A stretch of DNA of 63,288 nucleotides, filler included, from 5 parts of 5 records of this genome joined end to end with filler, not necessarily neighbours in it, one strand, 5' to 3'; shown: positions 18,358 to 39,291, counted from the whole stretch's first letter. The notes: a model not told the origin generated them from the sequence alone. Program-made: numbers and translations.

Positions 18358-19736
18358 TGGTTTACTATTTCATCTTATTTGTTAGTTTACTTACGATAAT
18401 ATTTATTTTAAAAAAATATCGATATACTTTCTATTCGATTGCTGAGAATAGCGTTGAACTAATCGACATTCTTATTACTAACATTGATGAAAACACTAAA
18501 ATTAAGCTTGTAAAAAAGAGTAATAATAAGCTTCTGGCTTCGCTTCTGAAAATATTTTTAATTGGTAGTCTGGCAATTATCTTAGGCAGTATCCCAATTC
18601 TTTTGTATTTGTTAATTTCAAAAGAAACATTCAACAATCTTGAATTTACAACGTTAAATGCGCTGATTGCAATTTCACTGGGAGCAACAATTCCTTTTCT
18701 ATTACCTCAAAAAACTAAAGATTCAGATTATTCGGAGTTATCGCAATTGCTACACAGAATAGCATTGAATAATTACCAAATTTCAAATAAATTATTCAAA
18801 AAGGAATCAAAAAAAATTAAACTGGAGAAATTAGAACTACAAACTTCTTTTGTAATTGTTTCAGGCCTGGCAAGAGCAGGCACAACCAGTTTAATGAACG
18901 ATCTTGCTAAAATAAACAAATTTGTTTCACTCAATTATGCCAACATGCCCTTCTTGTTATGTCCAAATTTCTGGGCAAAAGTGTACAAGCCCAAAACAGA
19001 AAAAACAAAAGAAAGGAGCCATAAAGATGGGATTAAAATTGGTGTAAATTCGAACGAAGCACTTGAAGAATATTTCTTTAAAGTAAAAGCAAACGATTCG
19101 TACATTACTGATGAATATTTAAAAGAGTACAAAATTTCGGAAGACGTTTATAAGGATTATCTAACTTATCAAAGCATTATTAAACGAAATAATCAAAAAA
19201 CATATCTAGCAAAAAATAACAATTTTATACTCCGTTATAAATCAGTTCGTGAATTCAACAACGATTTTATTATGGTTGTATTATTTCGGGATCCATTTAT
19301 GCATGCATCATCGTTAATGGAAAAACATCGCGATTATCTGGACTTACAGCAAAAAGATCCTTTTGTTTTGGAATATATGAATTGGCTGGGGCATCATGAG
19401 TTTGGGCTAGATCAAAAACCTTTTTATTTCAACAAATCCGACAACAACCATTTTAAAGATAAGAAGACACTCGATTATTGGTTGTATTCCTGGATAAACT
19501 ATTATACGTATGCGCTATCGTTTCGCCATTCAAATACTATTTTTATTAATTACGATGAATACTGTATGAATCCAAAATCAACGGTTAAAAAAATAATTTC
19601 AAAAACAAACCTGAAAACGGACATCCCGGAATTTAAGCCATTTATCAACAAAAGAAAAAACACCGATACTTATTCCGACAACCTAAAGGAAACTGCCGAC
19701 AAATTATTTCAGGAACTAAAATTAGCAACTACCTAA
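18357..19736 (+). CDS. Membrane-anchored sulfotransferase family protein
   Basis: N-terminal TMs; SGLARAGTT PAPS-binding loop; LFRDP..S motif. Confidence 0.8.
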   Translation: MVYYFILFVSLLTIIFILKKYRYTFYSIAENSVELIDILITNIDENTKIKLVKKSNNKLLASLLKIFLIGSLAIILGSIPILLYLLISKETFNNLEFTTLNALIAISLGATIPFLLPQKTKDSDYSELSQLLHRIALNNYQISNKLFKKESKKIKLEKLELQTSFVIVSGLARAGTTSLMNDLAKINKFVSLNYANMPFLLCPNFWAKVYKPKTEKTKERSHKDGIKIGVNSNEALEEYFFKVKANDSYITDEYLKEYKISEDVYKDYLTYQSIIKRNNQKTYLAKNNNFILRYKSVREFNNDFIMVVLFRDPFMHASSLMEKHRDYLDLQQKDPFVLEYMNWLGHHEFGLDQKPFYFNKSDNNHFKDKKTLDYWLYSWINYYTYALSFRHSNTIFINYDEYCMNPKSTVKKIISKTNLKTDIPEFKPFINKRKNTDTYSDNLKETADKLFQELKLATT

Positions 19737-19765
19737 ACATTTAATATGTATTTCAAAAAAATCAG

Positions 19766-21223
19766 GTGAAAAATTATATGTTAACAAATCGTATTAAATT
19801 AATACTTATTCTCTTTTTAATTCTTTCGGGAATTGCAATAGTAGCTTTTGTGAGTTATAAAGCAACCGTTACCTCATTTACCCACGACGAAAGTTTTACT
19901 TACCTCAATTACGTTCATCAATCGTTTTTCGATATTATTATTTTTAAAACACCCTACACTAACAACCACATATTAAATACGTTGCTAATAAAATACTCAG
20001 AAAATATATTTGGTTCATCGGAACTTGCTCTTAGGTTACCAAATATTATAGCACTGGCTATTTATTTAGTATATTCTACACTGATTTTTGCAAAGCATAA
20101 AATAGAATTATGGATCCCTGTATTTATAATAATGTCTTTCAATCCATTTCTCCTCGATTTTTTTGGCTTAGCAAGAGGTTACGGATTATCGATAGGGTTA
20201 ATGATTTTTAGCACATTTTATTTGATAAACCATTTTGAAACCAAAAAACAATCCGATTTAATTCTTTTTAATGCAGGAGCCATTCTTGCAGTATTTGCAA
20301 ATTTTACATTGTTGAATTTTTATGTTGCCGGACTAATTACTTTCAATATAATTCTTCTTTCTGATTTCAGATTTAAAACCGGAATTATTAATTCAGTTAA
20401 AAGTCTAATGCGAGAAAACAAAATAAACTTTTATTCAATAATTATTGCATTAATTACTCTTTTTGAGCCAGTTAGAAGAATGGCTCAACATAACATTTTA
20501 GATTACGGAGGGAAAAACGGACTTCGCGACACATTTGCATCGCAGGTTTATAATACTTTTTACAATACTCCAATAAAAGGAAGTTTAAGAGATGCGCTTT
20601 CAGAAATTATAGTCATAATTATAGTCGTAAATTTTATTATTTTTCTTACCAACTTTATTCTGAGAAACAGATCCTTTTTCACCCGTTTCAAGGGTCTAAT
20701 TATTTCGAACTTGATTATTCTATTAATTTTAACAGCAACAGTAGTTCAACATTTTCTTTTTGGTTACGATTTTTTAAAAGATCGATTTGCCTTGTTCCTT
20801 TATCCTTTAATAATGTTAAATACAGGTTTTCTGATATATTATTTGGCTTCATTTAAATTAAAATATTTTGTTATTCCGGTCGCGTATATTCTTGTTCCTT
20901 TTTTTAGCTATAATCTTATCGGAAATCTAAATACACGAAGTTATAAAGACTGGAAGTTCGACATGGACACAAAAGAAATGCTCGAGGTTCTTGCCAATGA
21001 AAAAGGCACACAAAAACAAATTAAACTTGGTATTAACTGGCTTTTTGAGCCAACTACAAACTACTATCGGATTACTAAAAACTACGAATGGTTGGTTCCG
21101 ACAAACCGCGAAGGAATATCAGAAATGGACGATTTTATATATGTTATGAAAAAAGACTCAGTTAAAAACAAGGAGATAAAATTTGTTACTCACGAAGGAA
21201 GAGCAATTTTATATAAGAATTAA
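19766..21223 (+). CDS. GT-C fold integral membrane glycosyltransferase-like protein
   Basis: THDESFT, NNHILNT, LALRLPN, ARGYGL; multi-TM; start may be ATG 19778. Confidence 0.65.
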   Translation: MKNYMLTNRIKLILILFLILSGIAIVAFVSYKATVTSFTHDESFTYLNYVHQSFFDIIIFKTPYTNNHILNTLLIKYSENIFGSSELALRLPNIIALAIYLVYSTLIFAKHKIELWIPVFIIMSFNPFLLDFFGLARGYGLSIGLMIFSTFYLINHFETKKQSDLILFNAGAILAVFANFTLLNFYVAGLITFNIILLSDFRFKTGIINSVKSLMRENKINFYSIIIALITLFEPVRRMAQHNILDYGGKNGLRDTFASQVYNTFYNTPIKGSLRDALSEIIVIIIVVNFIIFLTNFILRNRSFFTRFKGLIISNLIILLILTATVVQHFLFGYDFLKDRFALFLYPLIMLNTGFLIYYLASFKLKYFVIPVAYILVPFFSYNLIGNLNTRSYKDWKFDMDTKEMLEVLANEKGTQKQIKLGINWLFEPTTNYYRITKNYEWLVPTNREGISEMDDFIYVMKKDSVKNKEIKFVTHEGRAILYKN

Positions 21224-21295
21224 AAAAAACAAATTTATATGTTTGATTTCCTTTAAGAATCGTTTATTTTATTTTGGAATTAACTTACCAAGACT

Positions 21296-21890
21296 ATGAA
21301 AAAAAACTTACTCGCCATAATTGCTTCACTACTTTTTACTACTGTTTTGTTCTTTTTTCTGTTTAAACCGGTTATTCAGCACCCAAACAGTTATTTGTAT
21401 TCAAAATCGGGCGATGCACAAAAGAGCTATTTCAATTTTTCGTATTACCTGAAGTACGATCAGGGAATTAAACACGATGGGATTAATTATCCGTACGGCG
21501 ACCATTTACAGTATATTAACTCACATCCTTTGTATGTTCAGGTGTTAAAATTTGTGGATAAAAATATATATCCGGTTGCCAATTACGGTGTAGCCATTTT
21601 AAACCTTTCAATGATAATTTCGTTGCTGCTGGCCATCCCGTTTCTATTTCTGATTCTTCGGCATTATTCGCTTCCGCGCTGGTATGCAGCTGTTTTATCG
21701 GTTATATTATTGTTGCTTACTCCACAGTTCGATCGTATTCACGGGCACTTCGAAATGGTGTATGCCTTTTTTCTGCCCATGTACTGGTATTTACTAATTC
21801 GCTGGCGGCAAGGAAATAAACGCCTTTTGTGGAGCTCCCTTTTAATAATTGCCGGATTAGTTGGCGGATTTACCAGTGCCTATTTCGCTT
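21296..21890 (+). CDS. Multi-TM membrane protein (possibly GT-C type), 3'-truncated
   Basis: Open to gap; NYPYGDH motif and several hydrophobic segments. Confidence 0.6.
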
Positions 21891-21990
21891 NNNNNNNNNN
21901 NNNNNNNNNNNNNNNNNNNNNNNNNNNNNNNNNNTTAATTAATTAANNNNNNNNNNNNNNNNNNNNNNNNNNNNNNNNNNNNNNNNNNNN
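21891..21990. other. Artificial contig spacer
   Basis: N-run with TTAATTAATTAA. Confidence 0.99.
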
Positions 21991-22127
21991 ATTGTATTTT
22001 AATAATTTAGAAATTTTGCATAGGTATCTTACAACCTACCTTACACACAAAAACTCCAAAACACAAATTGTTCACAAAGTAGTTAAGGGTTCATTGAGAA
22101 TTCCAAATGCTTCGATGATCTTAAGCT

Positions 22128-23063
22128 TTATATACTTCCTCTGGTGTTGAGCCATCCAAACATTTTATCAAAGGCATTTTCCCGTGCCGGTTTACCAGAC
22201 AGGAAAACATCATGCACTGCATTTTCAATTTCCACCATCTTTACATCCGGACCCAGCTGCGGTGATATCCTTTTGATATCCTCAACATTTAAGATCACAT
22301 CACTGGTTTGTGCAACCTTTTTATATTTAAATATCCGGGCAGATCTGTTTGAATGCAATACCAGCACCGGGACCTGTATATTTGATGAACGCAATGACCG
22401 TTGCGCCCGAAAAACAGCACTTATCCAAACAAACCAGGTTTGAAACCCATCGATAGGTTTCCATTTGAGGCTATAATCCCATTCACCAAAATGATCCTTG
22501 TGCAGCGACATACCATATGCTGGTGGGATGGTCTTTTTGATAGCTGCACCTGGTGCAATCTTTGCCATTAAGTTTGCAGCAATTCTTGAGAGCGGCCTCA
22601 ACATCGGGGGTTGATTAAAATCGAGAAACGGCGCATTTAAAATCAGGACATCAACCAGGTTTCTGGAGTTACCCTTGTTCATATATATCGCAGAGATCAA
22701 CCCTCCGGTGGAATGTCCAAGAAGGATTAACCTGTTGGGATTGATTGTCTTTATCTTGTCGGTAGCCAGATCGATTTCCTCGAAATAATCCGTGAGATTT
22801 TTACAAAAGTTGGGCCGCTGATGTGGCAAAAGTGAGCGGCCGTGCCTGCGCAGATCAAGCGCATAAAAATCATAACCTTCCCTGTTAAACCGCTCAGCCA
22901 TGTGATCCTGAAAAAAGTAGTCCACATAGCCGTGGATATACAGTACACTTTTTCGGTTTTGGGTATTATTTTTTGATGCGATGAGAGTAGCTTCCACTTC
23001 ACCATCAATGTCATCTTGTAATGAGAGTGTCTCTATTGAATATTTCCGGAGCATTTCGGCCAT
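22128..23063 (-). CDS. Alpha/beta hydrolase (lysophospholipase-like)
   Basis: LYIHGYVDYF, GHSTGG nucleophile elbow, C-terminal HDV. Confidence 0.9.
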   Translation of the reverse strand: MAEMLRKYSIETLSLQDDIDGEVEATLIASKNNTQNRKSVLYIHGYVDYFFQDHMAERFNREGYDFYALDLRRHGRSLLPHQRPNFCKNLTDYFEEIDLATDKIKTINPNRLILLGHSTGGLISAIYMNKGNSRNLVDVLILNAPFLDFNQPPMLRPLSRIAANLMAKIAPGAAIKKTIPPAYGMSLHKDHFGEWDYSLKWKPIDGFQTWFVWISAVFRAQRSLRSSNIQVPVLVLHSNRSARIFKYKKVAQTSDVILNVEDIKRISPQLGPDVKMVEIENAVHDVFLSGKPARENAFDKMFGWLNTRGSI

Positions 23064-23064
23064 G

Positions 23065-24678
23065 TTACTTCATCATAAAATTCATCTCCTGCTTCTTGTA
23101 TTCCCGCATTTGTTTTACAGGCTCTATGATTGTATAACCATCCCACAACTGATCGTCAAACTGGTCAACAAAAATGACTTCCATTTTTTTCTTTTCCTTA
23201 AAATCCGCGAATGCCTCGCCGGAGATTTCGGTGTTATCCAAAACAAGGTATTCCACCGATTCTTTCATCGACATGGCTAAGCGAAACCGCACCTTTACCT
23301 CCATCAATGTTTTATCAAAAAGGAACCGTTTTCTTTTTTTTATCAATGCTATTTTCCGGTTGATACTGGCATTTGAAGCACTGTTATAGGAAAAATATTT
23401 GAGTGCATAAGTGCTGTTCTGCTTCTCAAAATAAATAGAACCGCTAAACTGTGTTTCCGCGTAGCCAACGCCCAATAGTTGAATTTCCAATCCCAGCTTA
23501 CCTGGAGCATAGGCATAATCGGCACGCACCAACGCATAGGTTTTGGTGGCAATGAACAGGCGTCCCTCGTACAGCCCTTTCGCCCTGGGCCTGAAATCAA
23601 TAATATATACTTCCTCGCCATTTACACGGGTTCCACCGGCAAGTGAATATTTATAACGCGCGGTTTTATGCAAAAACTCCCATTGATCTTTATCTTCGAG
23701 GTTTGTGTACCGCTCCTTGCGCACAATACCCCATCTTTGATATTTTACCCATCGCTCATTTCCTTTCAGGGTATCTTCCTGTGGTTCAGCAACTATTGTG
23801 TCAAACTGCGAATTAAATTCCAGTGAATCGCTAACCACGGAATCTTGATCGTTTTCTTCTTCCATATCAAGCTTACCACCAAAAATGCCGCTTCTCGCCT
23901 TCCAGTATTCATCCTCATCTGTGTTGGCAAAGGCATTTTCAAAAATGGCTTCAAGCTGCTTAAGATCGGCAACGTCTTTTTCCATTAATGATACGGTTCT
24001 GATAGGATCAATTTTGAAGGTTACGGAATCCTCCGGATTTTTGTTGTAATACAGATCGCCCAAAAAATCAGTGAAAGAGGTAAAATTGTCCGGGAATTTT
24101 TCTTCCACCAGATCAATCATATCCCTGTCCAGTTGCGGAACCGAGCTTTTTTTATATTTCAACTCAAACCCGGTAATGTCCTGATTATCGCGGTCGCGGA
24201 TAAAAACCTGTCGCCTGCTTGTGGTTAGCTTATAGTTTTTGCTTTTGTTTTCGAGCACCTTTTTTACAATCTCCCTGGGATTTGGGCTGCCCCCGAAAAC
24301 CAGTATTTCGCTGAGGTTGATGATATCCTCTTCCATCAACACATCAGGCGAATGCTTTAACTGTTCGATGGTGCGTTTAACTGTTTTGTAACCCATATAC
24401 TGGAAACGTACAGTATCAGCAAAACCAAGTCCTGAAATATCCATGGCATACTGTCCGTGTTCATTACTCACGGCACCGGTATGCTTGCTCAGCACATAAA
24501 TGTGGGTGTAAGGCAACGGAGCCTTGCTTTTATGATCGAGCACCAGGCCGTGAATTACCAGCGAAGAATCCCCGGAAGGGCTGATTTCCGTTTCGATCTC
24601 CGGGGGGAACAATGTTGCAAATCCTGCCGTGGAAAGCAAAAGCAATAAACCGATGAATGGTATGCACTTCCTGATCAT
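23065..24678 (-). CDS. Carboxypeptidase-regulatory-like domain exported protein
   Basis: Signal peptide; GLVLDHKSKAPLPY..GAVSNEHGQY..YMGYKT pattern. Confidence 0.75.
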   Translation of the reverse strand: MIRKCIPFIGLLLLLSTAGFATLFPPEIETEISPSGDSSLVIHGLVLDHKSKAPLPYTHIYVLSKHTGAVSNEHGQYAMDISGLGFADTVRFQYMGYKTVKRTIEQLKHSPDVLMEEDIINLSEILVFGGSPNPREIVKKVLENKSKNYKLTTSRRQVFIRDRDNQDITGFELKYKKSSVPQLDRDMIDLVEEKFPDNFTSFTDFLGDLYYNKNPEDSVTFKIDPIRTVSLMEKDVADLKQLEAIFENAFANTDEDEYWKARSGIFGGKLDMEEENDQDSVVSDSLEFNSQFDTIVAEPQEDTLKGNERWVKYQRWGIVRKERYTNLEDKDQWEFLHKTARYKYSLAGGTRVNGEEVYIIDFRPRAKGLYEGRLFIATKTYALVRADYAYAPGKLGLEIQLLGVGYAETQFSGSIYFEKQNSTYALKYFSYNSASNASINRKIALIKKRKRFLFDKTLMEVKVRFRLAMSMKESVEYLVLDNTEISGEAFADFKEKKKMEVIFVDQFDDQLWDGYTIIEPVKQMREYKKQEMNFMMK

Positions 24679-25111
24679 TTGGTTGAAATATTAACGGTTA
24701 CAATATACAAACATTTGCGGTTCCTGACAAACCCGGAAAATCCATAAAAGACGACTTTTCTTGCCATGTCATTCAGGATGTGTTAATGCTAAACTGATGA
24801 TTTAGTGAATGATGCCGGCTTAACCAATCACCGCATTAAACAATTATCCGCAAGACGATCAGGACGTGATTTTGTTACATCCCGAATACCCTGCAATAAA
24901 CAAATCCTTGCAGTGTTGATATTCAAACCATCTCCGGTTTTATGGCGGCTCCTGGAAATATTTTATTTTAGCAGGTGAATTATCAAAACCTGTGAACATG
25001 AAAAATTTTACCATAATCCGTGTGAACCTTAAGCCCCCTGTTTCGGGTTGTCATTTCAACTGAGCAGAAAGCGGGTTTTGGATGTGATTTTGATAAAAAT
25101 ACACAAACCTG

Positions 25112-25174
25112 AACATATCTGCAGTATGATGTTGGATATGTTTGGAAAAGTGGAATATATTATGAGTTAGTAGC
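25112..25174 (+). mobile_element. attI-like primary recombination site of cassette array
   Basis: Core GTTAGTAGC (25166-25174) is the reverse complement of GCTACTAAC at the end of the first gene; no attC-type left arm upstream; 8-bp inverted repeat AACATATC/GATATGTT at 25112-25142. Confidence 0.6.
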
Positions 25175-25202
25175 AACTTTTAAAAAGACAAAAATTTACA
25201 AA

Positions 25203-26588
25203 TTGAAAAGACATTTAATCATACTAAGTTTTCTTCTAATTGCAATTTCTTCATTTTCTGATTATCGATTAACTCGGGGACCCAACATTGGAGAGGTATA
25301 TTATATTGGACCAACTTACAGTGGATTGGGCATTTACCACTCGACTGATTTTGGGAATACTGCAGTTTGTGTTGATAGTACAACTAATGCAACAGGAGTT
25401 GTTGCAGACTTATCAGAAGGAGTGCTTTATTACAGAAACATGGGAGAGGCATTATATATTTCTTATAATCACGGTCAACAAGGAACATGGCAACTTCAAA
25501 ATGGTGGGATTTACCCTGGATTCGCAAGCGGCAGAATAGAAGGAGAAATTTACAACATTATCGTTTCTCATAGTGATAATTATGGCGAAACTTTTAATCC
25601 ACATAGTTACAATGGCTTTTTTGGCAACTACTTTGAAAGCGAAATAGACAACCAACCAGATATTGGATACCTGCTTACCTACAAATCAAGTGTTGCAGAT
25701 TCTGTATACTTATTGAAATCAATTGACAATTATGAAAATTTAGAATTAAATCGGGTTTTTAACTTCCATTGGAACGATGCAATTACTCTGACCAGAGGAA
25801 CAAATAGTGGAGAGTTATATTTATTGAATAGCACCAATCGTGAACTATGGTTTACTAATGACTTTTCAGAAAGCTGGATTAAAGTGGACAACATTAATTT
25901 TGGTAGCAGCCCTTATGGAGCTACAATAGTCGGAGGAAGACAAAATGGAGAAGTCTATATTAAATATGACTTTGTTAATTTAATGTGGCAAAATGCCCAT
26001 ACTTACATTTTCCACTCAACTGACTATGGGAAAACCTTTGAAGTTTTCCATCCTTTTGGAAAAGGAAATGAACCTGTTTTAGCAAATTTCTCTACAACAG
26101 AAAATGAGGTTTTATTGACAACCCCTGTTGCATTTTCAAACTTTTCAATAGGCAATATTTTGGAATATCAATGGGACTTTGAAAACGATGGAGTAATTGA
26201 CTCTTATGATGAATTTCCAACTCACACTTATCAAGATACGGGTTATTATTCTGTGAAACTTTCAGTGGTAGGAGCAGACAGCACAAATACCTTCATTAAA
26301 GAAAATTACATTCATGTCATTGACACCATAACAAGTAGTCCTGACTTAAATTATCAGGCAGTTAGTGTCTCGCCAAATCCTTTCAATAAAAGAATTTCAA
26401 TTGAATTAAGACAAGATTTTGAAATGATTGAAATTCTTGACTTAAATGGAAAAAGTCATTTTTCAAAAAAAATATACCCGGAAAACAAGATTGAAATCCT
26501 TGACTTGAAACAATTGAAGAAGGGAATATTCATCTTGAAAATTAGGACTAAAGGAAAAGACATTACGAAGAAAATAATAAAGAATTAA
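25203..26588 (+). CDS. Cassette 1: secreted protein with BNR-like motifs, PKD domain and T9SS type-A C-terminal domain
   Basis: Signal peptide; STDFG/STDYG; YQWDFENDG..PTHTYQDTGYYSVKL; SPNPF..KGIFILKI..TKKIIKN; TTG start. Confidence 0.85.
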   Translation: MKRHLIILSFLLIAISSFSDYRLTRGPNIGEVYYIGPTYSGLGIYHSTDFGNTAVCVDSTTNATGVVADLSEGVLYYRNMGEALYISYNHGQQGTWQLQNGGIYPGFASGRIEGEIYNIIVSHSDNYGETFNPHSYNGFFGNYFESEIDNQPDIGYLLTYKSSVADSVYLLKSIDNYENLELNRVFNFHWNDAITLTRGTNSGELYLLNSTNRELWFTNDFSESWIKVDNINFGSSPYGATIVGGRQNGEVYIKYDFVNLMWQNAHTYIFHSTDYGKTFEVFHPFGKGNEPVLANFSTTENEVLLTTPVAFSNFSIGNILEYQWDFENDGVIDSYDEFPTHTYQDTGYYSVKLSVVGADSTNTFIKENYIHVIDTITSSPDLNYQAVSVSPNPFNKRISIELRQDFEMIEILDLNGKSHFSKKIYPENKIEILDLKQLKKGIFILKIRTKGKDITKKIIKN

Positions 26589-26597
26589 GAAAAAGCA

Positions 26598-26736
26598 GCT
26601 ACTAACAGCCCATGATAGCCCATAGCCGGCTTACGGATCATCAAGAAAAAGAATTGTAAATTTGAGCATATGTAACATCAACGAACATCAGAGTAAAGAA
26701 ACGGCTACGGGCCATATGGGCAAAACGTTGGCAACC
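26598..26736 (+). mobile_element. attC-like site 1
   Basis: GCTACTAAC-A-GCCCATgATAGCCCATAGCCG..CGGCTACGGGCCATATGGGC-AAAAC-GTTGGCAACC imperfect palindrome. Confidence 0.85.
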
Positions 26737-26755
26737 ATATAAGCATGTATGTAAA

Positions 26756-27541
26756 ATGAAAAATATCATACTATTAATATTAGCAACACTTCTTTCGAAT
26801 CTAAACATCTTCGGACAAACTCGAGTTATTTCTGGGAGAGTGATAACTGAGTATTTAGAACCATTACCTATGTTAGACATTCAAAATTCTGATGCAAAAA
26901 TCCTAGGTAAAACAGATATGGATGGGAGGTTTAAATTTAGCATTCCTCAAGAAACGGACAGTTTGCTGTTTCGCTATATCGGCTTGGAGCGGACTGATAT
27001 AAAATTAAAGCACGATTGCGACACAATAGAAGTTATCATGTTTTATAGTGGATCCTCTCATTGGTCCTTTAATAAAATAGATAGAATTCGCAAGAAAAGA
27101 TTTGATGAATTACCCAACATACATACTATTGCAGTAAAAGAAGGGCTATTTACGACTAATTCTAATTGCTATGAAAGAGAATTTAAACCTGATAAACCAG
27201 AACTGAAAGTGATTAGTAAGTATTTAAAAGAATTAAGGAAAGCTAACAAAAATGATTTTAAAGAATTAAAAATCGGTGACATTGTAAAAATACCATTTGG
27301 AGTAAACAGCTCGGAAAAAAGTATTAGTAGTACTTATTCACTTTGCGAGAATTGTACTGAGGAAGATTATGATTACGTAATTACTGGAAAGATTATTAAT
27401 AAATACAGAAGAAATTTTACTCTTAAAATTGAGATTACAGAAATGCAACAATATGACTCCTTAGAATATAGAGGGAAGACTTTAAAAATCGGCAATGATT
27501 TTAAATATGAGATGAGAATTTTTAAAGTGATAATAAATTAA
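26756..27541 (+). CDS. Cassette 2: exported hypothetical protein with carboxypeptidase-regulatory-like N-terminal domain
   Basis: Signal peptide; ISGRVI..EPLP..TDMDGRF..FRYIG. Confidence 0.75.
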   Translation: MKNIILLILATLLSNLNIFGQTRVISGRVITEYLEPLPMLDIQNSDAKILGKTDMDGRFKFSIPQETDSLLFRYIGLERTDIKLKHDCDTIEVIMFYSGSSHWSFNKIDRIRKKRFDELPNIHTIAVKEGLFTTNSNCYEREFKPDKPELKVISKYLKELRKANKNDFKELKIGDIVKIPFGVNSSEKSISSTYSLCENCTEEDYDYVITGKIINKYRRNFTLKIEITEMQQYDSLEYRGKTLKIGNDFKYEMRIFKVIIN

Positions 27542-27544
27542 AAC

Positions 27545-27670
27545 GGTTGCCAACAAAAGCTAAACACCATAAGGGTTTTGGCGCATTAGAAATGAATAAG
27601 AATACGTAAAAAAAATAAAACAAAATAGGGAAAAGCTCCTTACAGTGCTTAGCCCCGACCGTTGTGGGTA
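27545..27670 (+). mobile_element. attC-like site 2
   Basis: GGTTGCCAAC-AAAA-GCTAAACACCATAAGG..CCTTACAGTGCTTAGC-CCCGACC-GTTGTGGGTA. Confidence 0.85.
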
Positions 27671-27706
27671 ATGCAACCAAAGACATAGACGTAAGATGAA
27701 TTAAAT

Positions 27707-28363
27707 ATGAAATACACAGAAGACATAGTAAAAAAAGCAGCGAAGGATGCATATTTGAATGGTGATGTAAAATTTGAGATTTTAACTGAAAATTGTGCGT
27801 TGATTGTGATTGACATGCAAGATGAATTCGTAAAGCCAGAGTGGACATCCTCTTGGATTCCTGAAGCGACAAAACAAGTAACAAAAATAAAAATCCTAAT
27901 AGATTTCTGTAGACAAAAAAAAATCCCAGTAATTTATACAGCATTCAAGGATACTCATTTGTACAAAGACAGACCAAAAACAGGAGATTTGATGCCGAAT
28001 AGATATCCTGAATTAGGAGAAGACTCAACTTGGTTTAAGCAAGGGAAGATATGGCATGAATTAGAACCTAATGAACATGATATTGTGATTTACAAGCCAT
28101 CTTATGGTGCTTTCTATGATACTCCATTAGAGACAATTCTAAAAAACTTAGAAAAGGATACGATTATAATTTGCGGTACACTGACGAATTATTGCTGTGG
28201 AACAACTGCGAGACAGGGATATGAGCGAGGTTTTAAAGTACTTTTTGGGAGTGATGTGACTTCAACCGATGATCCAGAGATGCAAGAACCTGAATTAAAA
28301 GTATTAAGAAAAGGATTTGCAAAGGTTATGACTTTAAACGACATACAAAATCACATAGGATAA
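27707..28363 (+). CDS. Cassette 3: isochorismatase-family cysteine hydrolase
   Basis: ALIVIDMQDEF, KPSYGAFYDT, GTLTNYCCGTTARQG (D-K-C triad). Confidence 0.92.
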   Translation: MKYTEDIVKKAAKDAYLNGDVKFEILTENCALIVIDMQDEFVKPEWTSSWIPEATKQVTKIKILIDFCRQKKIPVIYTAFKDTHLYKDRPKTGDLMPNRYPELGEDSTWFKQGKIWHELEPNEHDIVIYKPSYGAFYDTPLETILKNLEKDTIIICGTLTNYCCGTTARQGYERGFKVLFGSDVTSTDDPEMQEPELKVLRKGFAKVMTLNDIQNHIG

Positions 28364-28369
28364 TGCACA

Positions 28370-28506
28370 TACCCACAACAGCCAATATAGAAAATAGCTG
28401 GGCAGTAGGTTTTCGAACTTCGGTAGCCCGCATCAGGCTTTTATCTCGGTAGATAGGAACGTAGCCCGTATTCCGCTAATTTCCATATTGGCAACACGTT
28501 AGCTGC
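28370..28506 (+). mobile_element. attC-like site 3
   Basis: TACCCACAAC-A-GCCAATATAGAAAATAGC..GCTAATTTCCATATTGGC-AACAC-GTTAGCTGC. Confidence 0.85.
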
Positions 28507-28514
28507 AAGGCAAA

Positions 28515-29426
28515 ATGACAGACATGAGAGATATTTACTCAAAAAGAAATAAAAGTGTTCCTGATAAACTTGTCTATAACCAAATTGACGAGAAACTACG
28601 TGTTCAAATTATCAGGACATGGTGGAAGTTTTTTAATCAGTATGATGAAGAAACATCTGAAAAACTATGGTTCAAAATCAATAGTATAATCTGTGACGAA
28701 CACGGAAAACATACTCTCCTTGCAGATGACCTAAGAAGATGGAAGGAGAGTTACAGGTGCCAATATTACTTTGAGAACTTGGAATCTTTAGACGAATCTT
28801 TTGATGTCATTGAAATTGTATTCAGAGCTATATCTAAAATTCCCGAAGTCATTCATCTAAGAATATCTCCAAGACCAGATGAAGTAATAGCTGAGCTAAA
28901 CGAGAGATTTCGAGAAAACGACTTTGGTTATGAATTTACTAAAGGCATGATAGTTAGGGTGGACAATAAACTGCTTCATAAGGACATAGTAAATCAAGTA
29001 ATCCAATTAACTAATGACAGTTTTTTTTCAAATGCAAATGAAGAGTTTCTGTCTGCTTTGAATCATTTGAGACATGGGCGTAATAAAGAAGCCTTAAACG
29101 ATAGCCTAAAGTCATTTGAATCCACTATGAAAATAATAATCCACGACATGGGTTGGGATTATAATGAAAATGACACCGCAAGTAAATTGATTCAAAAATG
29201 CCTTGACAATGAACTGATTCCGAAATCCCTTCAAAGTCAATTTTCTGCACTAAGAACAACTCTTGAAGCAGGTATACCGACCATTCGAAATAAGAATAGC
29301 GGACATGGACAAGGTCCTAAGAAAATCGTAGTTCCTGACAGCTTAGCGACCTATTCAATTTACATGACCGGGACGTGCATTAATTATCTAATCGAATTGT
29401 ACAAAGAAAAAAAGCCCAGCAGCTAA
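28515..29426 (+). CDS. Cassette 4: STM4504/CBY_0614-like protein with abortive-infection-like C-terminal domain
   Basis: IYSKRN..LRVQII N-terminus; ELNERFRE..GYEF; KSFESTMK; PTIRNKNSGHGQG (RxxxxxH); stop codon lies within inverse core. Confidence 0.7.
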   Translation: MTDMRDIYSKRNKSVPDKLVYNQIDEKLRVQIIRTWWKFFNQYDEETSEKLWFKINSIICDEHGKHTLLADDLRRWKESYRCQYYFENLESLDESFDVIEIVFRAISKIPEVIHLRISPRPDEVIAELNERFRENDFGYEFTKGMIVRVDNKLLHKDIVNQVIQLTNDSFFSNANEEFLSALNHLRHGRNKEALNDSLKSFESTMKIIIHDMGWDYNENDTASKLIQKCLDNELIPKSLQSQFSALRTTLEAGIPTIRNKNSGHGQGPKKIVVPDSLATYSIYMTGTCINYLIELYKEKKPSS

Positions 29427-29451
29427 TCGAGTAGACGGCCCCGGCCATGAA
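29426..29451 (-). mobile_element. 3' end of putative group IIC intron inserted in attC-like site 4
   Basis: Reverse strand ..GGCCGGGGCCGTCTACTCGAT|TAGCTGC; replaces the hairpin arm expected after GCAGCTAA. Confidence 0.65.
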
Positions 29452-29551
29452 NNNNNNNNNNNNNNNNNNNNNNNNNNNNNNNNNNNNNNNNNNNNTTAAT
29501 TAATTAANNNNNNNNNNNNNNNNNNNNNNNNNNNNNNNNNNNNNNNNNNNN
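29452..29551. other. Artificial contig spacer
   Basis: N-run with TTAATTAATTAA. Confidence 0.99.
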
Positions 29552-30193
29552 TTCAAATGCAGTACCAGCATCTAAACCTTTGCCTAAAACAGTTTGTGAA
29601 ATCAAATCAGGATTTTCCAGTACTTCATTATGAGATACTGATGAACCAACTGTTGTAACAATACCTTCACCAACACGGGCGATAATTGTTTCTTCTCCTG
29701 CACCACCAACTAATCTCTCTATATTAGCACGTACTGTAACTCTTGCTTTAGCACGGAGCTCAATACCATTCTTTGCAATTGCTGCAACGATTGGTGTTTC
29801 AATGATTTTTGGTTGAACGCTCATTTTGACCGCTGTCAAAACATCTCGACCAGCTAGGTCAATAGCACATGCTCTCTCAAAACCTAGGTCAATGCCTGCA
29901 CGCTGTGACGCGATAAGTGCAGATACTACTCTGTCTACTCTACCGCCTGCTAATAGATGAGCTTCCAGCTTATCTATTGATAAACTAAGTCCTGCTTTTA
30001 CTGCCATAATCATCGGATTGATTACTCTTGTTGGCGATACTCTTCTCAGACGCATACCAATCAATTGGATAATGCTGACCTTTACTCCTGAAGCTGATGC
30101 TGTAATCCATAATCTTACTGGAATAAAAGAGAATACGATTGCTAGAAATACAAAAACAATTATTATAATTGCAATAACTAAACCTTGACCCAT
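29552..30193 (-). CDS. floA: Flotillin-like protein FloA (YqfA), 3'-truncated
   Basis: [44 protein letters not shown]. Confidence 0.93.
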
Positions 30194-30225
30194 TTTTAAT
30201 ACCTGCCTTTTTTATTATTTTGTTA

Positions 30226-30741
30226 TTAATTTTCCTTTATTACAACAATGCGATATCCTTCAACTTTTTCTATTTTCACATCGCTGCCTTTGTCGATAAA
30301 AACTCCATCCGTTACTACTGCCAGTCTGACTCCGTCGAAGTCACATGTACCCGCTGGTCTTAAGTGAGTCAATGCTACACCTCTTTTGCCAACGAAATAC
30401 TTCATATCATTATGACTTATGTATCCTTGTTCGCTGGTTTCAGCATTTTTATTCACTAGTTTCGATTTATATATTGCTCCCTTGCTTGCACTTCTCATTA
30501 TTATTATTGCCAATATAGTCAGTATCATCAGAATAATCAAAAAGATTACTAATCCTTCATAAAAATTACCTGCACTTAATACAATTCCCATTAATAATAG
30601 GATTAATCCAGTTATTCCCGGAAAGGCAAATCCTGGCGTAAACATTTCAATTACTATAAATATAAAACCAACAATATAGCATAGCGTTGCAATCCAAGTT
30701 AAATCCCCGAAAAAAGCCATTATATTTTCCCACGCTCCCAT
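30226..30741 (-). CDS. NfeD-like membrane protein
   Basis: EMFTPGF TMs; ALTHLRPAG..VEGYRIVV OB-fold; directly upstream of floA. Confidence 0.88.
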   Translation of the reverse strand: MGAWENIMAFFGDLTWIATLCYIVGFIFIVIEMFTPGFAFPGITGLILLLMGIVLSAGNFYEGLVIFLIILMILTILAIIIMRSASKGAIYKSKLVNKNAETSEQGYISHNDMKYFVGKRGVALTHLRPAGTCDFDGVRLAVVTDGVFIDKGSDVKIEKVEGYRIVVIKEN

Positions 30742-30862
30742 AGTGTTACCTCCTGTCTAATTAGTCAATAATTCCTATAACTAATTTATATATCTATAAT
30801 ACAATTCTTTATGTGAAATTTCATAGTAATTTACTACACAATACATATAACTGTTCAAAATG

Positions 30863-31747
30863 TCAGCTTTCGCTATTAATATTTGCCTGAGGAATATATC
30901 CGTAAAATCTAGTAAGTCCCTTACCCGTTGATATCTGAATTCTGCCTTTATACTTTTCAACAGTCTCTTTTATAATAAACAAGCCCATGCCAGTCCCTTT
31001 ATCGCCTTTTGTTGTAAAACCTGGTTCAAATATTTTCCCGAGAATTTCATCTGATATATTTCCATCGTTTTCAACTGAAAAATAGACAGATTTTATATCC
31101 TCGCGAAGACTTATGTGTATTTCACCATTATGTTCTTTAGCTGCATATATTGCATTATCTATTAAATTAGAAAGTATTCTACAAAACTCCCATCCCTCTA
31201 TCTGAAGTGAATCAAGTCGTGCTGTAATGTGAAGATGTATAGGTACATTTTCCTCGTTAGCACGTTGTTGTTTTGCTGCAAGTAGTCCGTTTACAGCAGG
31301 ATTGTTGGTCTTTAGCAATTCACCAACCTGCCTAATGTCCTCATAAATCTGAGCTATATAGTTAGCTGCTTCATCATACTCCTTTAGCTGTATTAATGAG
31401 TGAACAACCTGTAAATGATTGATAAAATCATGTCTTTGTACTCTTAATTTTGTGTTTAGGGCCTCTGTACTCTCGATGGTCTGAATCATTTCAATATATT
31501 GTGCTCTTGACTTTAGTATATTCCAAGCATTATTCATAAGAAGTCCATTGCCCAATACAATCACTGGTATCATAACCAAAATCATTGCAGCGGTTGATGT
31601 TGTACTTCCGCTAAAATAAAGTACTGCCAACACAATGCTCGCAATAATCTGCAGCCAACTTCCAATCATAACTAAAAAGGCTGTTTTCCTTGGATTTACT
31701 TTCACATTAAAAACATTTGATGCAATATTTTTTGTCTTTTCAAGCAT
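30863..31747 (-). CDS. Sensor histidine kinase (Spo0B-like/GHKL)
   Basis: RVQRHDFINHLQV, SNLIDNA, IFEPGFTTKG, GMGL. Confidence 0.9.
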   Translation of the reverse strand: MLEKTKNIASNVFNVKVNPRKTAFLVMIGSWLQIIASIVLAVLYFSGSTTSTAAMILVMIPVIVLGNGLLMNNAWNILKSRAQYIEMIQTIESTEALNTKLRVQRHDFINHLQVVHSLIQLKEYDEAANYIAQIYEDIRQVGELLKTNNPAVNGLLAAKQQRANEENVPIHLHITARLDSLQIEGWEFCRILSNLIDNAIYAAKEHNGEIHISLREDIKSVYFSVENDGNISDEILGKIFEPGFTTKGDKGTGMGLFIIKETVEKYKGRIQISTGKGLTRFYGYIPQANINSES

Positions 31748-31826
31748 AGTATCATTTTATCAAAAAAAATCTTATTTAGCAATGAGATTACTTTTTATTA
31801 TAAGTATAATATACATATATTCCTAA

Positions 31827-33041
31827 TTATTCGTAATAGGTGTCCATAAAATCCATTAATTTTGATTTATCAAAGTGTTTTTTGTGATATTGAAGTGCTT
31901 TCTCGCGCCAGTTATCTAAATCTTCATTATTCTCAATAATGTTTACTAAAGCTTTTGCAATATCCTCTGTCTCTCCATGCTTAAAGCATAATCCACAGTC
32001 AGCTTCTTTAATAAGATTGTGCGTTTCTCCCTCAGCAATAGCAATAATAGGCATTCCGCATGCTAAATAGGACTGTATTTTTGCCGGTATGGTCATATTA
32101 GATATTGAATCATTCTTTAGACTTAGATATGCAATGTCACATGCTCCCATGTAATCTGGTATATCTGTTGCAGGCTTTCTCTCTATGAAATTAAACATAT
32201 ATTCCAAATTATTTTTTGCAACATATCCTATAAGTTCTGATTTATTTCTACCGTCACCAATAATATTTATACGTATATTATTCCCATATTCCAATTTCTC
32301 TACTTGTTTACCGATATCAGCTAATATGTGCAGTTGTTGAAATTCTCCGATATTACCTGCATATACAAGGTTGAGTTTATCATCAATTGGTATTTCTTTA
32401 ACATTAATTTCTGATTTACTTTTGGGTTTATAAAAGTCCTCTGCATACTGAGGCCAAAATTCAATTTTTTCTTCTGGTACTCCCCTATTCATTATAGCTT
32501 TTACAAAGCTATTGGAGGTAACAAAAATTTTATCACAGTGTTTATAAATGAAATCCACCATTTTACCGATTGAATTGAGAATAAATTTATTTGAAACCCC
32601 AGTCATAAGCTGTACATTCTCAGGCCATAAATCCTGAACATACAGATAACAAGGGATATTCTTCCTTTTTTTATACCATACTCCAAGCAGTGCCTGAGAC
32701 ATGGGTGATACTTCAAACATAAATATATAGTCTGTTTTAATATTCGTAAAGAGTTTCCAGAAAAAACCTGACACTACAAATGAAAGATAATTAAGTGAAA
32801 GCATAATTGAACTACTGCCTCTAGGAATTATTGGCAGTCTTACTATTTTCATGCCATTGTATTCTTCATTTCTCTTTTTGAAGAGTCCATAACCATCAAA
32901 GAATTTTCCAATCGGATAGTTTGGAATTCCTGTTACAACTACTACTTCATATCCTCTTTTTACCCATTCAGATGCAATGTCATTTATTCTAAACTGTTCA
33001 GGATAAAAATACTGCGAAATAACCAGTATACGTTTCTTCAC
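31827..33041 (-). CDS. GT4 glycosyltransferase
   Basis: SQYFYPE, VQDLWPE, YAGNIG, PAKIQSYLACGMPI. Confidence 0.9.
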   Translation of the reverse strand: MKKRILVISQYFYPEQFRINDIASEWVKRGYEVVVVTGIPNYPIGKFFDGYGLFKKRNEEYNGMKIVRLPIIPRGSSSIMLSLNYLSFVVSGFFWKLFTNIKTDYIFMFEVSPMSQALLGVWYKKRKNIPCYLYVQDLWPENVQLMTGVSNKFILNSIGKMVDFIYKHCDKIFVTSNSFVKAIMNRGVPEEKIEFWPQYAEDFYKPKSKSEINVKEIPIDDKLNLVYAGNIGEFQQLHILADIGKQVEKLEYGNNIRINIIGDGRNKSELIGYVAKNNLEYMFNFIERKPATDIPDYMGACDIAYLSLKNDSISNMTIPAKIQSYLACGMPIIAIAEGETHNLIKEADCGLCFKHGETEDIAKALVNIIENNEDLDNWREKALQYHKKHFDKSKLMDFMDTYYE

Positions 33042-33916
33042 TGCTTATCCTCGCAATCAGCGGTAACACTTAGTTTAATTGATTCTTCCAGACTTCTTAT
33101 TTGATAATTGTATTTATATTCACTTAAATCTTTATCATACATTAGATTACCAAAGACTTTTTTAAGTATATTTACTCTTTCTATTAATAATTTGATAGCC
33201 CAATTGAATACTTTGGTGAGCTTAATATCTTTTCCGGATTCTCTACTGATTAATTTGACTAGATAGCTGGTATTTACATACTCTGCATTTTGTGGATAAA
33301 AGATTCCGCTGTCATTATTATCAATAACAAGTTTAATAAATTCACAAAGATTATCTACATGCAGCATTGATCTTTTATTATCGTAATCAGGGAAAAAAGG
33401 CATTTTCTCAGCAAATCTCACTAAACGAGGAAAATTGCCCTTTGAATTATTACCATATATCATGGGCGGACGTAATATCGCAATTTTAAACGAATCATCT
33501 TCTAATCCCAGAATCCCATATTCTGCCATGATTTTACTGTTGCCATAGAAATTATCACATTTGGGAATTGTATTGCAAGTTATTAAGCCATTCTCCATAT
33601 TACTATTGGTATATATAATAATACTGCTCATGAATATAAACAGACCAACTCCAGCTTCTTTTGCTTTCTTTGCTGTAGATACAGTTAAATCCCGGTTAAT
33701 TTTGTAATACAAGTCTTTCTCTTTTAAATCAGAAGATACGTGAGCGATACCCGCTACATGAAAAACCACATCATAATTTAAGAAGTCAAAATCTTCCCAT
33801 TTTTCATCCTTCATATCCAAAGTATCTACTTTATACTTTGGTTCATACCCGCATATATGATTTTCAAAGCTAGTACCTATATAGCTGTTAGCTCCTGTTA
33901 TCAATATTTTCTTCAT
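33038..33916 (-). CDS. NAD-dependent epimerase/dehydratase
   Basis: ITGANSYIG, HVAGIAH, YGNSK, RPPMIYG. Confidence 0.9.
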   Translation of the reverse strand: MKKILITGANSYIGTSFENHICGYEPKYKVDTLDMKDEKWEDFDFLNYDVVFHVAGIAHVSSDLKEKDLYYKINRDLTVSTAKKAKEAGVGLFIFMSSIIIYTNSNMENGLITCNTIPKCDNFYGNSKIMAEYGILGLEDDSFKIAILRPPMIYGNNSKGNFPRLVRFAEKMPFFPDYDNKRSMLHVDNLCEFIKLVIDNNDSGIFYPQNAEYVNTSYLVKLISRESGKDIKLTKVFNWAIKLLIERVNILKKVFGNLMYDKDLSEYKYNYQIRSLEESIKLSVTADCEDKQ

Positions 33917-34789
33917 TTATTTCTCCGCAAAATTTGTATTTTTGCTTTTATTTCCTTTATCGCTAAATCCCATAGTAATTGCATTATGAGGGCAAATATC
34001 TACACAATCACCGCACCTTATACATTCTGCACTATTAGGATTATTCATTGCATCTACATGCATCTTGCATACATTGGTACATGCTCTGCATCTTGTGCAC
34101 TTATCAGCATCAATGCTAATATTATAAAACGAATACTTATTAAATAATGAGTATATTGCACCTAATGGACACAAGTACTTACAGAATACTCTATAGATAA
34201 GTATTGAAAACAATATTATACCAATTAATAAGAATAATTTCCACAAAAACAATGAACCTACTAAATTTCGTAAGCTTTCGTTGCCAATAAGCAACGGAAT
34301 ACCACCCTCTAATGTACCAGCTGGACATATATATTTACAAAAATAAGGTGCTCTTACACCATATTTGTCTACAAGCATCATTGGCAGTAGTATCACAAAT
34401 ACTACAAGTACTACATACTTTAAGTATTTTAGCACATTATGTATTTTTTTATTAGTCTTAATTTTCCTAATTGGTATTTTATAAAGCAATTCTTGTATAA
34501 ATCCGAAAGGACACAAGAAGCCACATACCATTCTGCCAAAAGCAATAGAAAAAGCTAATAGCATACCCGAAACATAGAGGGAAAACTTAAATTCCCTATT
34601 GTTTAGCACTCCCTGTAAAGACCCAACAGGACATGCCCCAAGAGCACCAGGACAGGAATAACAGTTGAGTCCGGGTATACATACTGACTTAGTTTTGCCT
34701 TGATAAATTGTTGAAGTAAGAAAGCCTTGAATATATACATTTGATGTAATTGTAACAATAAGCTGTATAATCCATCTTTTTATTCTCAT
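33917..34789 (-). CDS. 4Fe-4S binding membrane protein
   Basis: PGLNCYSCPGA, CGFLCPFG, CKYICPAG, two CxxCxxCxxxC motifs; ATG 34789 coupled to upstream stop. Confidence 0.9.
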   Translation of the reverse strand: MRIKRWIIQLIVTITSNVYIQGFLTSTIYQGKTKSVCIPGLNCYSCPGALGACPVGSLQGVLNNREFKFSLYVSGMLLAFSIAFGRMVCGFLCPFGFIQELLYKIPIRKIKTNKKIHNVLKYLKYVVLVVFVILLPMMLVDKYGVRAPYFCKYICPAGTLEGGIPLLIGNESLRNLVGSLFLWKLFLLIGIILFSILIYRVFCKYLCPLGAIYSLFNKYSFYNISIDADKCTRCRACTNVCKMHVDAMNNPNSAECIRCGDCVDICPHNAITMGFSDKGNKSKNTNFAEK

Positions 34790-34923
34790 CAGCCGACTCC
34801 AATACACTCCAGACAGATTCTAGTTGCCTTATTAATTACTACTTCTATTTCTCCAACATATATCCCGGCTATTATCATAATGATAGCAATAGTTAGAATA
34901 ATATATTTAATATATGATTTCAT
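34789..34923 (-). CDS. CD1871A-family small CXXC membrane protein (44 aa)
   Basis: MKSYIKYIILTIAIIMIIAGIYVGEIEVVINKATRICLECIGVG*; TGATG overlap with the 4Fe-4S gene. Confidence 0.85.
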   Translation of the reverse strand: MKSYIKYIILTIAIIMIIAGIYVGEIEVVINKATRICLECIGVG

Positions 34924-35163
34924 TTTATACCGCCCAAAGAAATTCTTTATAATTATAGCACTTTATCATAATCGATACAATTTATTTGAATGTGGTTTTA
35001 TTCTTTTAGTACAAAAATTTACAATAATTAATGATAAAACAATAATAGCTGCTATTTATGTACAAAATGTATCAAAATCGTTCATATTGCATAACAATGA
35101 TTATTGATATAAATAATAACATATGATATACTTTATCAAATTATACTTTATGTGAAAGGTACT

Positions 35164-36246: not shown

Positions 36247-36253
36247 ACCTTAA

Positions 36254-36329: not shown

Positions 36330-36336
36330 AAATAAT

Positions 36337-36816: not shown

Positions 36817-36825
36817 GGAGATGCT

Positions 36826-38193: not shown

Positions 38194-38199
38194 TCTCTT

Positions 38200-39279: not shown

Positions 39280-39291
39280 TCCACGCTATTT

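Follow-up and report, generated by a model that had tools for sequence, protein, structure and literature searches.

A probable integron-type gene cassette array in an uncultured Bacteroidales

We analysed a 63,288-nucleotide stretch of DNA (hereafter the window), in which five contigs are joined end to end by filler, and found that its positions 25166-29451 very probably represent the start of an integron-type gene cassette array from an uncultured Bacteroidales. The array comprises three complete cassettes and a truncated fourth, which share one orientation; each has one open reading frame (ORF) and an untranslated leader of 17-46 nt. An earlier reading of the region, made from sequence alone, had noticed that each unit carries a matching pair of inverted ends and had proposed that every unit was once a circle that integrated by crossover at or next to G|TT. 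The observation is real and was in part confirmed, and the interpretation in terms of circles and G|TT is supported. The signature of circular intermediates is correct but textbook, since the proposed unit limits coincide with the published cassette definition: the matching ends are the known footprint of a gene cassette and not a new signature. The locus is therefore best placed as a known kind of system in a phylum with few documented integrons. Passages of PMC9024848 describe complete integrons as rare among complete Bacteroidetes genomes, and a passage of PMC9668308 lists the phylum among integron bearers.

Complementary arms at the cassette ends

Pairing was scored by setting the R' arm, read from the G of GTT, against the R'' arm, read back from the C of AAC, and by counting consecutive base pairs (bp). 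All eight strings that had been singled out earlier lie at the coordinates given for them, and seven are unique in the window. In units 1-3 the unit's own 5' GTT arm and 3' AAC arm are complementary over 9, 10 and 10 consecutive bp, while the two arms that share one intergenic element pair over just 3, 4 and 3 bp, so that the claimed disparity between pairing across a gene and pairing within an element was reproduced. All 12 R'/R'' combinations other than a unit's own gave 0-5 bp. The unit limits drawn by the sequence-only reading, which are those of cassettes 1-3 in Table 1 and 28499 onward for the fourth, are exactly the standard cassette limits. Passages of the ACID paper (PMC2674596) place the limits of a cassette at the first T of R' and at the G of the R' that follows, and take its own attC to be the sequence of the circular form; the integron crossover between G and TT is set out in part of PMC3518468.

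The fourth pair was read differently in the earlier account, which had it cut short by an insertion. This proved mistaken: GCAGCTAA (29419-29426) is followed by a T, after which come 24 further bases of the contig, and the supposed insertion from 29452 is an N44-TTAATTAATTAA-N44 linker, i.e. the end of the contig. The fourth own pair matches at 8/9 positions, with T in place of the conserved C. The remark that GTTGTGG departs from GTTRRRY holds, and the other three arms depart from it too. The shared pattern offered in its place, GTTR-N4-Y-M-A, fits the four window sites and fails in two of three additional cassettes; only GTTR and an A at position 11 are invariant in 7/7 cassettes.

The own-arm match is far above chance. 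Around the 40 other ORFs of at least 150 aa in the window, which served as controls, the longest cross-gene inverted repeat anchored on GTT and AAC measured 5 bp, and 0/40 reached 6 bp; anchored matches of comparable length around ordinary genes, which had been named earlier as a possible refutation, were not seen. Unanchored cross-gene inverted repeats of at least 9 bp occur at 6/40 control ORFs, and it is therefore the anchoring on the triplets that makes the match meaningful. When the flanks were shuffled, 23, 3 and 0 of 20000 shuffles reached the pairing length observed for units 1, 2 and 3, respectively.

A search of JGI metagenome contigs with the 20-mer of the attC1 right arm retrieved two further arrays, L019 and L020; a third locus, L021, was rejected as a eukaryote-like chance match. 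The three complete cassettes of L019 and L020 show own pairing of 10, 10 and 10 bp, compared to 3-4 bp in the array. Perfect own-arm pairing over 9-10 bp, as opposed to the 7-bp core, is thus present in 6/6 complete cassettes of the window, L019 and L020, and seems to be a property of this attC lineage, not a new principle. The three attC1-type sites (window, L019 and L020) have unrelated ORFs before and after them and are alike only from TAAC to GTT. These copies share about 90% identity with each other and their inner 126 nt reach a mean column identity of 96%, whereas only 2-4 of 6 positions agree in their outer R'' arms. The L019 cassette protein showed no homology to the protein of window cassette 2, and the attC1 left arm had zero matches in viral contigs.

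Where homology ends in other samples was examined in the assembled contigs of four public runs, X1-X4. Run X1 contains the whole stretch, of which it may be the source, and is not independent evidence; X2-X4 come from other studies. X3 and X4 cover unit 4 only, and X2 covers only parts of 24975-26736. A 3670-nt contig of X2 matches cassette 1 over 25166-25693 with 2 differences, after 3142 unrelated bases. Copies of the attC1 type are present in X2 at higher depth, and one contig diverges after 26729, the last T of GTT. In X3, a relative of cassette 4 with about 95% identity starts at 28498 after 114 unrelated bases; in X4, a relative with about 95% identity extends from 28490 to 29426, where the next base is C (AAC) and a different attC follows. 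As had been anticipated for units bounded at GTT, similarity starts at 25166, 28498 and 28490, positions that coincide with the G of GTT or precede it by 8 nt. Unit 1 (X2) and unit 4 (X3 and X4) sit in different neighbourhoods. X2 also holds a joint of 25170 to 26602, the intervening sequence of which is not known, and X1 holds copies related to attC3, with 13-16 differences, in two other contigs at tenfold lower depth. In X4, 29401/29412-29440/29443 also recurs in two further contigs, where different sequence precedes it.

These features would be expected from the integron mechanism. In it, the attC site would act as single-stranded DNA, the bottom strand folding into an R stem, a bulge, an L stem and a loop, and the integron integrase would cut between the G and TT of R'; we infer that IntI does the cutting. 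On excision a cassette would become circular, with its own first bases completing the attC. Once it is inserted, TT and a further 6-7 nt would sit at the 5' end of the cassette, far from the partner R'' arm, and the attC in the array would be a chimera, its R' arm being that of the next cassette. Such a chimera would explain why pairing is perfect across the gene and poor within the intergenic element.

Predicted structure of the attC sites

The intergenic elements are attC-type sites. In each, an AAC close to the left edge and a terminal GTT on the right enclose a long imperfect inverted repeat, which closes a loop of about 73 nt; attC length in the window, from AAC to GTT, is given as 124-126 nt. 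These AAC/GTT bounds lie just 3' of a single ORF in 3/3 complete window sites, and in 6/6 when L019 and L020 are included. Parts of PMC4889954 describe arrays as chimeric attC sites in which only the AAC/GTT triplets are strongly conserved, with loops of 20-100 nt, a range that holds the loop length seen here. No T-run was found behind the hairpins.

The sequence-only reading had proposed circularising each unit at G|TT and folding it. Doing so changed the predicted bottom-strand energies from -15.65, -11.6 and -18.7 to -23.35, -19.3 and -28.4 kcal/mol, a gain of 7.7, 7.7 and 9.7 kcal/mol, and added a basal stem of 9-12 bp that is continuous with the inner stem. The top strands of the reconstituted sites gave -17.8, -15.6 and -25.1 kcal/mol, so that the bottom strand folds better by 5.55, 3.7 and 3.3 kcal/mol. 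The predicted R stem has 9-10 Watson-Crick pairs and a conserved G.T pair. It is followed by a predicted spacer, a bulge of 3-4 nt confined to the R'/L' arm, and by a predicted L stem of about 20 bp. Sites of the attC1 type have a single bulged base on the double-prime arm, 6 bp from the start of the L stem (C, C and G among the copies), and attC3 has a T.T mismatch in place of this bulged base.

For a comparative view we built a covariance model (R1) from the three attC1-type copies, on the bottom strand from AAC to GTT and with a structure set by hand. An alignment of the three different attC types by MAFFT had misaligned their left ends and was excluded from modelling. Run over 66 kb with filters off, R1 found exactly the six complete intergenic elements of the window, L019 and L020; all six are bottom-strand matches whose ends fall exactly at AAC and GTT. 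The scores were 162.8 bits for attC1, 83 for L019-B, 30.4 for attC3 (E 2.4e-5) and 22.5 for attC2 (E 0.0022), with the best unrelated match at E ~2. In the six-site alignment 97.2% of cells form standard pairs, compared to 31-55% in slid registers, and compensatory two-sided changes are seen in 11/24 pairs; 0/500 shuffles reached any of five measures. Three G.T pairs, kept in 5-6 of the 6 sites, speak for the bottom strand, as the equivalent positions of the top strand would be A.C mismatches. The L stem of site 2 likewise has bottom-strand G.T pairs where the top strand would have A.C mismatches. On this thermodynamic and comparative basis, the modelled folds support the bottom strand as the better-folding and presumably recombinogenic strand.

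Related genomes, array leader and cassette cargo

To survey relatives, a broader covariance model (R2) was built from the six sites of the window, L019 and L020. R2 sites are present in 19/23 genomes of the family to which G001, the closest metagenome-assembled genome (MAG), belongs at E up to 1e-3, and in 16/23 at 1e-5; with stricter filters they occur in 16/121 sampled genomes of the order at 1e-5. G023, with 33 sites over ~25 contigs, and G022, with 13 sites, have the most of the 23 family genomes. G001 and G002 yielded none by attC regular expression, by a search with the 4.8-kb array DNA or by R1, and R2 gave one site in G001. In addition, five attC-model hits (four of 39.8 bits and one of 39.5) are spread over one 4-Mb contig, G138:C1, and may be copies of one repeat or cassette.

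An own-arm survey of 20 family-genome regions started from 48 R2 hits, one of which overlapped another on the opposite strand and was dropped, leaving 47 sites. A partner matching at 9/10 or more positions at any upstream GTT within 3.5 kb was found for 18/47 sites, compared to 42/940 shuffled arms, and no such match within the array was found for any of the 47 (0/47). At G016:C46 a perfect 10/10 upstream partner delimits a single cassette of 787 bp. The own-arm rule is real in the family and holds in about a third of cases. A weaker rule in the family fits decayed sites or sites that the model missed, and the window array looks recent.

The array is preceded by a conserved block, the array leader. 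A block of ~55-80 nt before the first GTT is conserved at the heads of arrays in several genomes. In X1, a contig of equal depth carries a second copy, with GTTGTGCGG 15 nt beyond it, and another copy is present in X2. BLAST and a sequence-only model placed the leader at G023:C111, G023:C50, G022:C74 and G022:C107, so that it occurs in about two copies per genome. In a five-way alignment conservation ends at the GTT, which is GTA in one copy, and an inverted repeat, CATATC-N15-GATATG, is conserved within the block. Between the two G022 copies the shared sequence extends at least 230 nt further upstream. Treating the leader as a short attC was rejected: neither strand at any of four loci has a stable single-stranded fold (z -1.22 to +0.60). 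By its sequence and position the leader is a candidate attI-like double-strand site. After the four other leaders no own-arm partner of at least 8/10 was found; three of these loci end after 557-2192 nt and one has GTA. A leader 20-mer had two matches in viral contigs, both inside a phage coding region and discarded as chance. A whole-word search of titles and abstracts, the sole basis for calling them absent from print, returned no multi-copy attI-like sites.

No PF00589 recombinase was found on the four leader contigs of G022 and G023, and no integrase lies beside the leader at the window, G022:C74, G022:C107 or G023:C50, the loci with enough upstream DNA. The leader-neighbour genes that were scanned are of housekeeping types (4/18, 6/18 and 7/26 of the listed ORFs). 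A full-length IntI was found in 1/23 family genomes, at G020:C663, with 420.9 bits (TIGR02249 cut-off 265) over model positions 1-315, and this lineage accordingly has an integron integrase. The gene is alone on its contig, which suggests, by ending where it does, that assembly breaks at a repeat there. The flanks of this contig, including the 64 nt upstream of the gene, align locally with the pre-array region of the window within the range of shuffles, and the intergenic DNA of L001, the locus of the closest MAG, showed no likeness to that region (the L001 contig stops 420 nt from the gene). Other family genomes have only Xer-like matches of 109-133 bits.

Two further recombinase-type genes came to light. 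In G001 the best, sub-threshold match to the IntI model is L014 (G001:C646, 3-2748), a 565-aa frame that joins the C-terminal part of UvrD, a zinc ribbon and a SAM_4-type tyrosine recombinase, and a KilA-N gene follows it. On G023:C117 a recombinase lies 32 nt from an attC; with 117.6 bits against a cut-off of 265 and tied to an IS91-family transposase, it was rejected as the array integrase. The IS91-family transposase and Xer-like recombinase genes there (L076, 2438-4733) end 32 nt from the attC; a GC-rich hairpin and GTTC stand just before the AAC of the site, and this looks like an insertion sequence inserted at the edge of the attC.

The coordinates of the array and its surroundings are collected in Table 1. 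Cassette 4, whose protein has AbiJ_NTD4 and DUF7014 domains and weak PADLOC matches to the candidate system PDC-S32 (E 1.6e-10), carries a candidate anti-phage gene; no relatives of the protein were among 201 pattern matches in the metagenome_contigs set. Proteins with a type IX secretion system (T9SS) C-terminal sorting domain are encoded in cassettes at window 25203-26588 and at L020 1-303, and others are CarboxypepD_reg-like; judged from such domains, the cassette pool appears adapted to Bacteroidota hosts. At G023:C111 the cassette after the leader encodes an EAD11-CHAT protein.

Table 1. Positions of the array, its flank and related loci (window coordinates unless another locus is named)
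Feature	Position	Strand	Details
alpha/beta hydrolase gene	22128-23063	-	upstream chromosomal flank; Pfam and NCBIfam scans
CarboxypepD_reg-like protein gene	23065-24678	-	upstream chromosomal flank; Pfam and NCBIfam scans
Array leader	25092-25168	+	ends at first crossover GTT, 25166-25168
Cassette 1, 1561 bp	25167-26727	+	arms GTTAGTAGC (25166) and GCTACTAAC (26598)
Cassette 1 ORF	25203-26588	+	secreted BNR/PKD protein, T9SS C-terminal sorting domain; domain scans
attC site 1, chimeric	26598-26736	+	cassette 1 R'' arm, inner site AAC 26604 to GTT 26729, then cassette 2 R' arm
Cassette 2, 934 bp	26728-27661	+	arms GTTGGCAACC and GGTTGCCAAC
Cassette 2 ORF	26756-27541	+	N-terminal CarboxypepD_reg-like domain; domain scans
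attC site 2	27545-27670	+	inner site 27552-27663; folds, model R1
Cassette 3, 837 bp	27662-28498	+	arms GTTGTGGGTA and TACCCACAAC
Cassette 3 ORF	27707-28363	+	isochorismatase-family hydrolase; domain scans
attC site 3	28370-28506	+	inner site 28377-28500; folds, model R1
Cassette 4, cut by contig end	28499-29451	+	R' arm GTTAGCTGC
Cassette 4 ORF	28515-29426	+	AbiJ_NTD4 and DUF7014; NCBIfam STM4504/CBY_0614, 275 bits
Cassette 4 R'' arm GCAGCTAAT	29419-29427	+	AAT replaces AAC
Start of cassette 4 attC, first 24 nt	29428-29451	+	
Linker N44-TTAATTAATTAA-N44	7555-7654, 21891-21990, 29452-29551, 47187-47286	.	four identical copies
Leader copy	L067 342-418		
Leader copy	L073 8088-8164		
Leader copy	L074 2191-2267	-	
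Leader copy	L075 12015-12090	-	
IntI gene, L036 (G020:C663)	188-1171	-	alone on 1236-nt contig ending 64 nt upstream of its start

The window is made of five contigs (1-7554, 7655-21890, 21991-29451, 29552-47186 and 47287-63288), and the cassette array is confined to the one of 7.46 kb at 21991-29451. The piece from 29552 has matches to sporulation-type kinases and the last piece carries hflKC-hflX-miaA-mutL-amiB; the gene content of the five pieces points to different organisms. Features that span a linker are artefacts, as the pieces joined are unrelated contigs. The flanking CarboxypepD_reg-like protein (537 aa) is 79% identical to a protein of a MAG labelled Lentimicrobiaceae, and the contig derives from an uncultured Bacteroidales, probably of that family. 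An Rfam scan of the contig at E up to 1 returned zero matches.

Alternative explanations and known systems

Several observations weigh against reading the locus as an integron-type array. No recombinase or integrase is among the ORFs of the contig, which offers 3.2 kb upstream of the array and breaks off within cassette 4, and IntI was not found in G022 or G023, the genomes richest in sites; as MAGs are incomplete, the latter is weak evidence. Of the 47 family sites 41 begin with AAC and 35 end with GTT, leaving 6 without AAC and 12 without GTT, and among the 26 family cassettes bounded by two hits the own arms match at 9/10 or more positions in 9 and at 8 or more in 12. Bottom-strand folds of the sites as they stand in the array exceed shuffles weakly (z = -2.18, -0.58 and -1.98), the covariation alignment had been fitted to the structure of the model and is thereby biased towards it, and the sites depart from the canonical attC in having a one-sided bulge instead of a two-sided spacer and a clean extrahelical base only in the attC1 type. 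The assembled contigs, which cannot show rare junctions, contain no circle or excision joint at G|TT. Finally, unit 4 has AAT, and its X4 relative shares homology only to ...GCAGCTAA, after which another attC follows, a pattern that a simple model in which the attC travels with its ORF does not predict.

This last pattern and the conservation of the attC1-type sites bear on how the sites evolve. The inner site and the ORF of unit 4 seem, from their sequences, to have had separate histories, and both the AAT and the attC in X4 would be explained by a point mutation combined with inner-site exchange or homogenisation. That inner sites may be exchanged or homogenised separately from the arms is hinted at by an inner 126 nt that is near-identical, by R'' arms that are about half identical, and by an X4 attC that differs from ...AA|C onward.

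The alternative that survives best supposes integron-like cassettes moved by a recombinase other than a classical IntI, or by one that acts only in trans, with arrays at several chromosomal landing pads (the leader) instead of beside a single intI-attI platform. An integrase missing from the window contig, an IntI in 1/23 family genomes against attC sites in 19/23, and sites scattered over ~25 contigs in G023 would all suit it, as would a leader that occurs about twice per genome (in the window and the X1 contig, and at two loci each in G022 and G023) and four G022/G023 leader contigs that lack PF00589 and whose scanned neighbours are housekeeping genes. We nevertheless consider it improbable. 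MAGs routinely lose or fragment integron platforms, and the lone IntI sits on a contig of 1236 nt; clusters of attC sites lacking an integrase (CALINs) are common in ordinary integron biology, as parts of 10.1101/2022.09.11.507474 describe. The anatomy of the sites, their bottom-strand bias and the limits at G|TT are exactly the traits of IntI substrates, and no other recombinase lies beside the arrays, the single site-adjacent one being part of an IS91-family element.

A second alternative, which we regard as very improbable, takes each gene as a small transposable unit with terminal inverted repeats of 9-10 bp (GTT...AAC), moved by a transposase, and the intergenic sequence as backbone or target DNA. 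A transposase would need a shared end, whereas the arm sequences are distinct in 7/7 cassettes and it is the inner sites and the AAC/GTT triplets that are conserved. Formally the arms are terminal inverted repeats, and the X4 relative of unit 4 is homologous only from about the GTT to ...GCAGCTAA, with another element downstream; however, Pfam and NCBIfam scans found no transposase on the contig, no target-site duplications were seen, and structure and covariation indicate a folded single strand. An ordinary operon with terminator or repetitive extragenic palindromic (REP)-like hairpins and coincidental cross-gene complementarity is hardly credible, even with unanchored repeats at 6/40 control ORFs and in-array folds only marginally better than shuffles, as anchored repeats of at least 6 bp occur at 0/40 controls, shuffle tails are at most 1.2e-3 per gene for three adjacent genes, the own-arm rule recurs in three cassettes elsewhere, homology in other samples has its limits at GTT, and T-runs are missing after the hairpins.

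The reading as an integron-type array can be taken one step further. It is conceivable, though we think it rather unlikely, that Lentimicrobiaceae-type Bacteroidales possess a dispersed integron, in which a single lineage-specific attC family is scattered among numerous small arrays and lone cassettes, with array heads at about two integrase-unlinked leaders per genome. If the leader were a working attI, such genomes would have several capture platforms, on which one integrase encoded elsewhere, or a recombinase not yet recognised, would act in trans.

As a principle, the pairing of own arms adds nothing, since it re-derives the argument that first set the cassette limits and the G|TT crossover. 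This own-core-site argument is said to originate with Hall et al. 1991 and Stokes et al. 1997. What the locus contributes is host range, in the form of a fresh-looking Bacteroidales cassette array with perfect own-arm pairing in 6/6 complete cassettes when L019 and L020 are counted, and cargo fitted to the host, namely a secreted protein sorted by the T9SS, a protein of the CarboxypepD_reg-like kind and a candidate defence gene resembling AbiJ. In practical use, the own-arm rule allows the 5' limit to be predicted for cassettes that stand alone. The integrase-unlinked leader and the near-identical inner sites beside cassette-specific arms are the leads that follow from it, and both bear on the origin of cassettes and on how arrays without an adjacent integrase are serviced.

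When comparing the window sites with the short attC sites of classical mobile integrons, for example that of aadB with 60 bp, RYYYAAC/GTTRRRY arms and extrahelical T-N6-G as given in part of PMC3518468, the AAC/GTT triplets, the imperfect palindrome and the folding of the bottom strand are shared, as is an extrahelical base, which attC1-type sites have on the double-prime arm after the first 6 bp of the L stem. However, the window sites are about twice as long, their R stem has 9-10 bp instead of 7, only the GTTR of GTTRRRY is retained (7/7), the bulge of 3-4 nt is one-sided and lies on the prime arm, and attC3 has a T.T mismatch.

Judged over the length of the contig, the array counts as a CALIN, unless its integrase lies elsewhere in the genome. 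It is CALIN-like in having no integrase on the contig, 3.2 kb of which lie upstream, and three complete attC sites and one partial site. The first junction of the window, ATGA|GTTAG, also fits the loose GWT motif that passages of 10.1101/2022.09.11.507474 give for genomic insertion sites (attG), as in insertions of the SALIN kind. In contrast to the CALIN and attG accounts in those passages, the DNA before the array is a conserved leader and not arbitrary genome sequence.

The leader resembles attI in standing at the attI position, in ending at the crossover GTT and in being conserved in sequence without single-stranded structure. Its size is similar as well, attI1 measuring ~65 bp. Unlike attI, it is unlinked to an integrase gene at four loci and is present about twice per genome.

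Sedentary chromosomal integrons are exemplified by the array of Vibrio cholerae, with attC sites of the Vibrio cholerae repeat (VCR) type. The window array has in common with them its tandem, same-orientation cassettes of one ORF with an untranslated leader of 17-46 nt and its long attC sites, which are alike between unrelated cassettes and are chimeric, with limits at G|TT. It differs from them in its Bacteroidales host, in having no intI beside it, and in that the related genomes carry their sites as many small clusters and singletons instead of in one large array.

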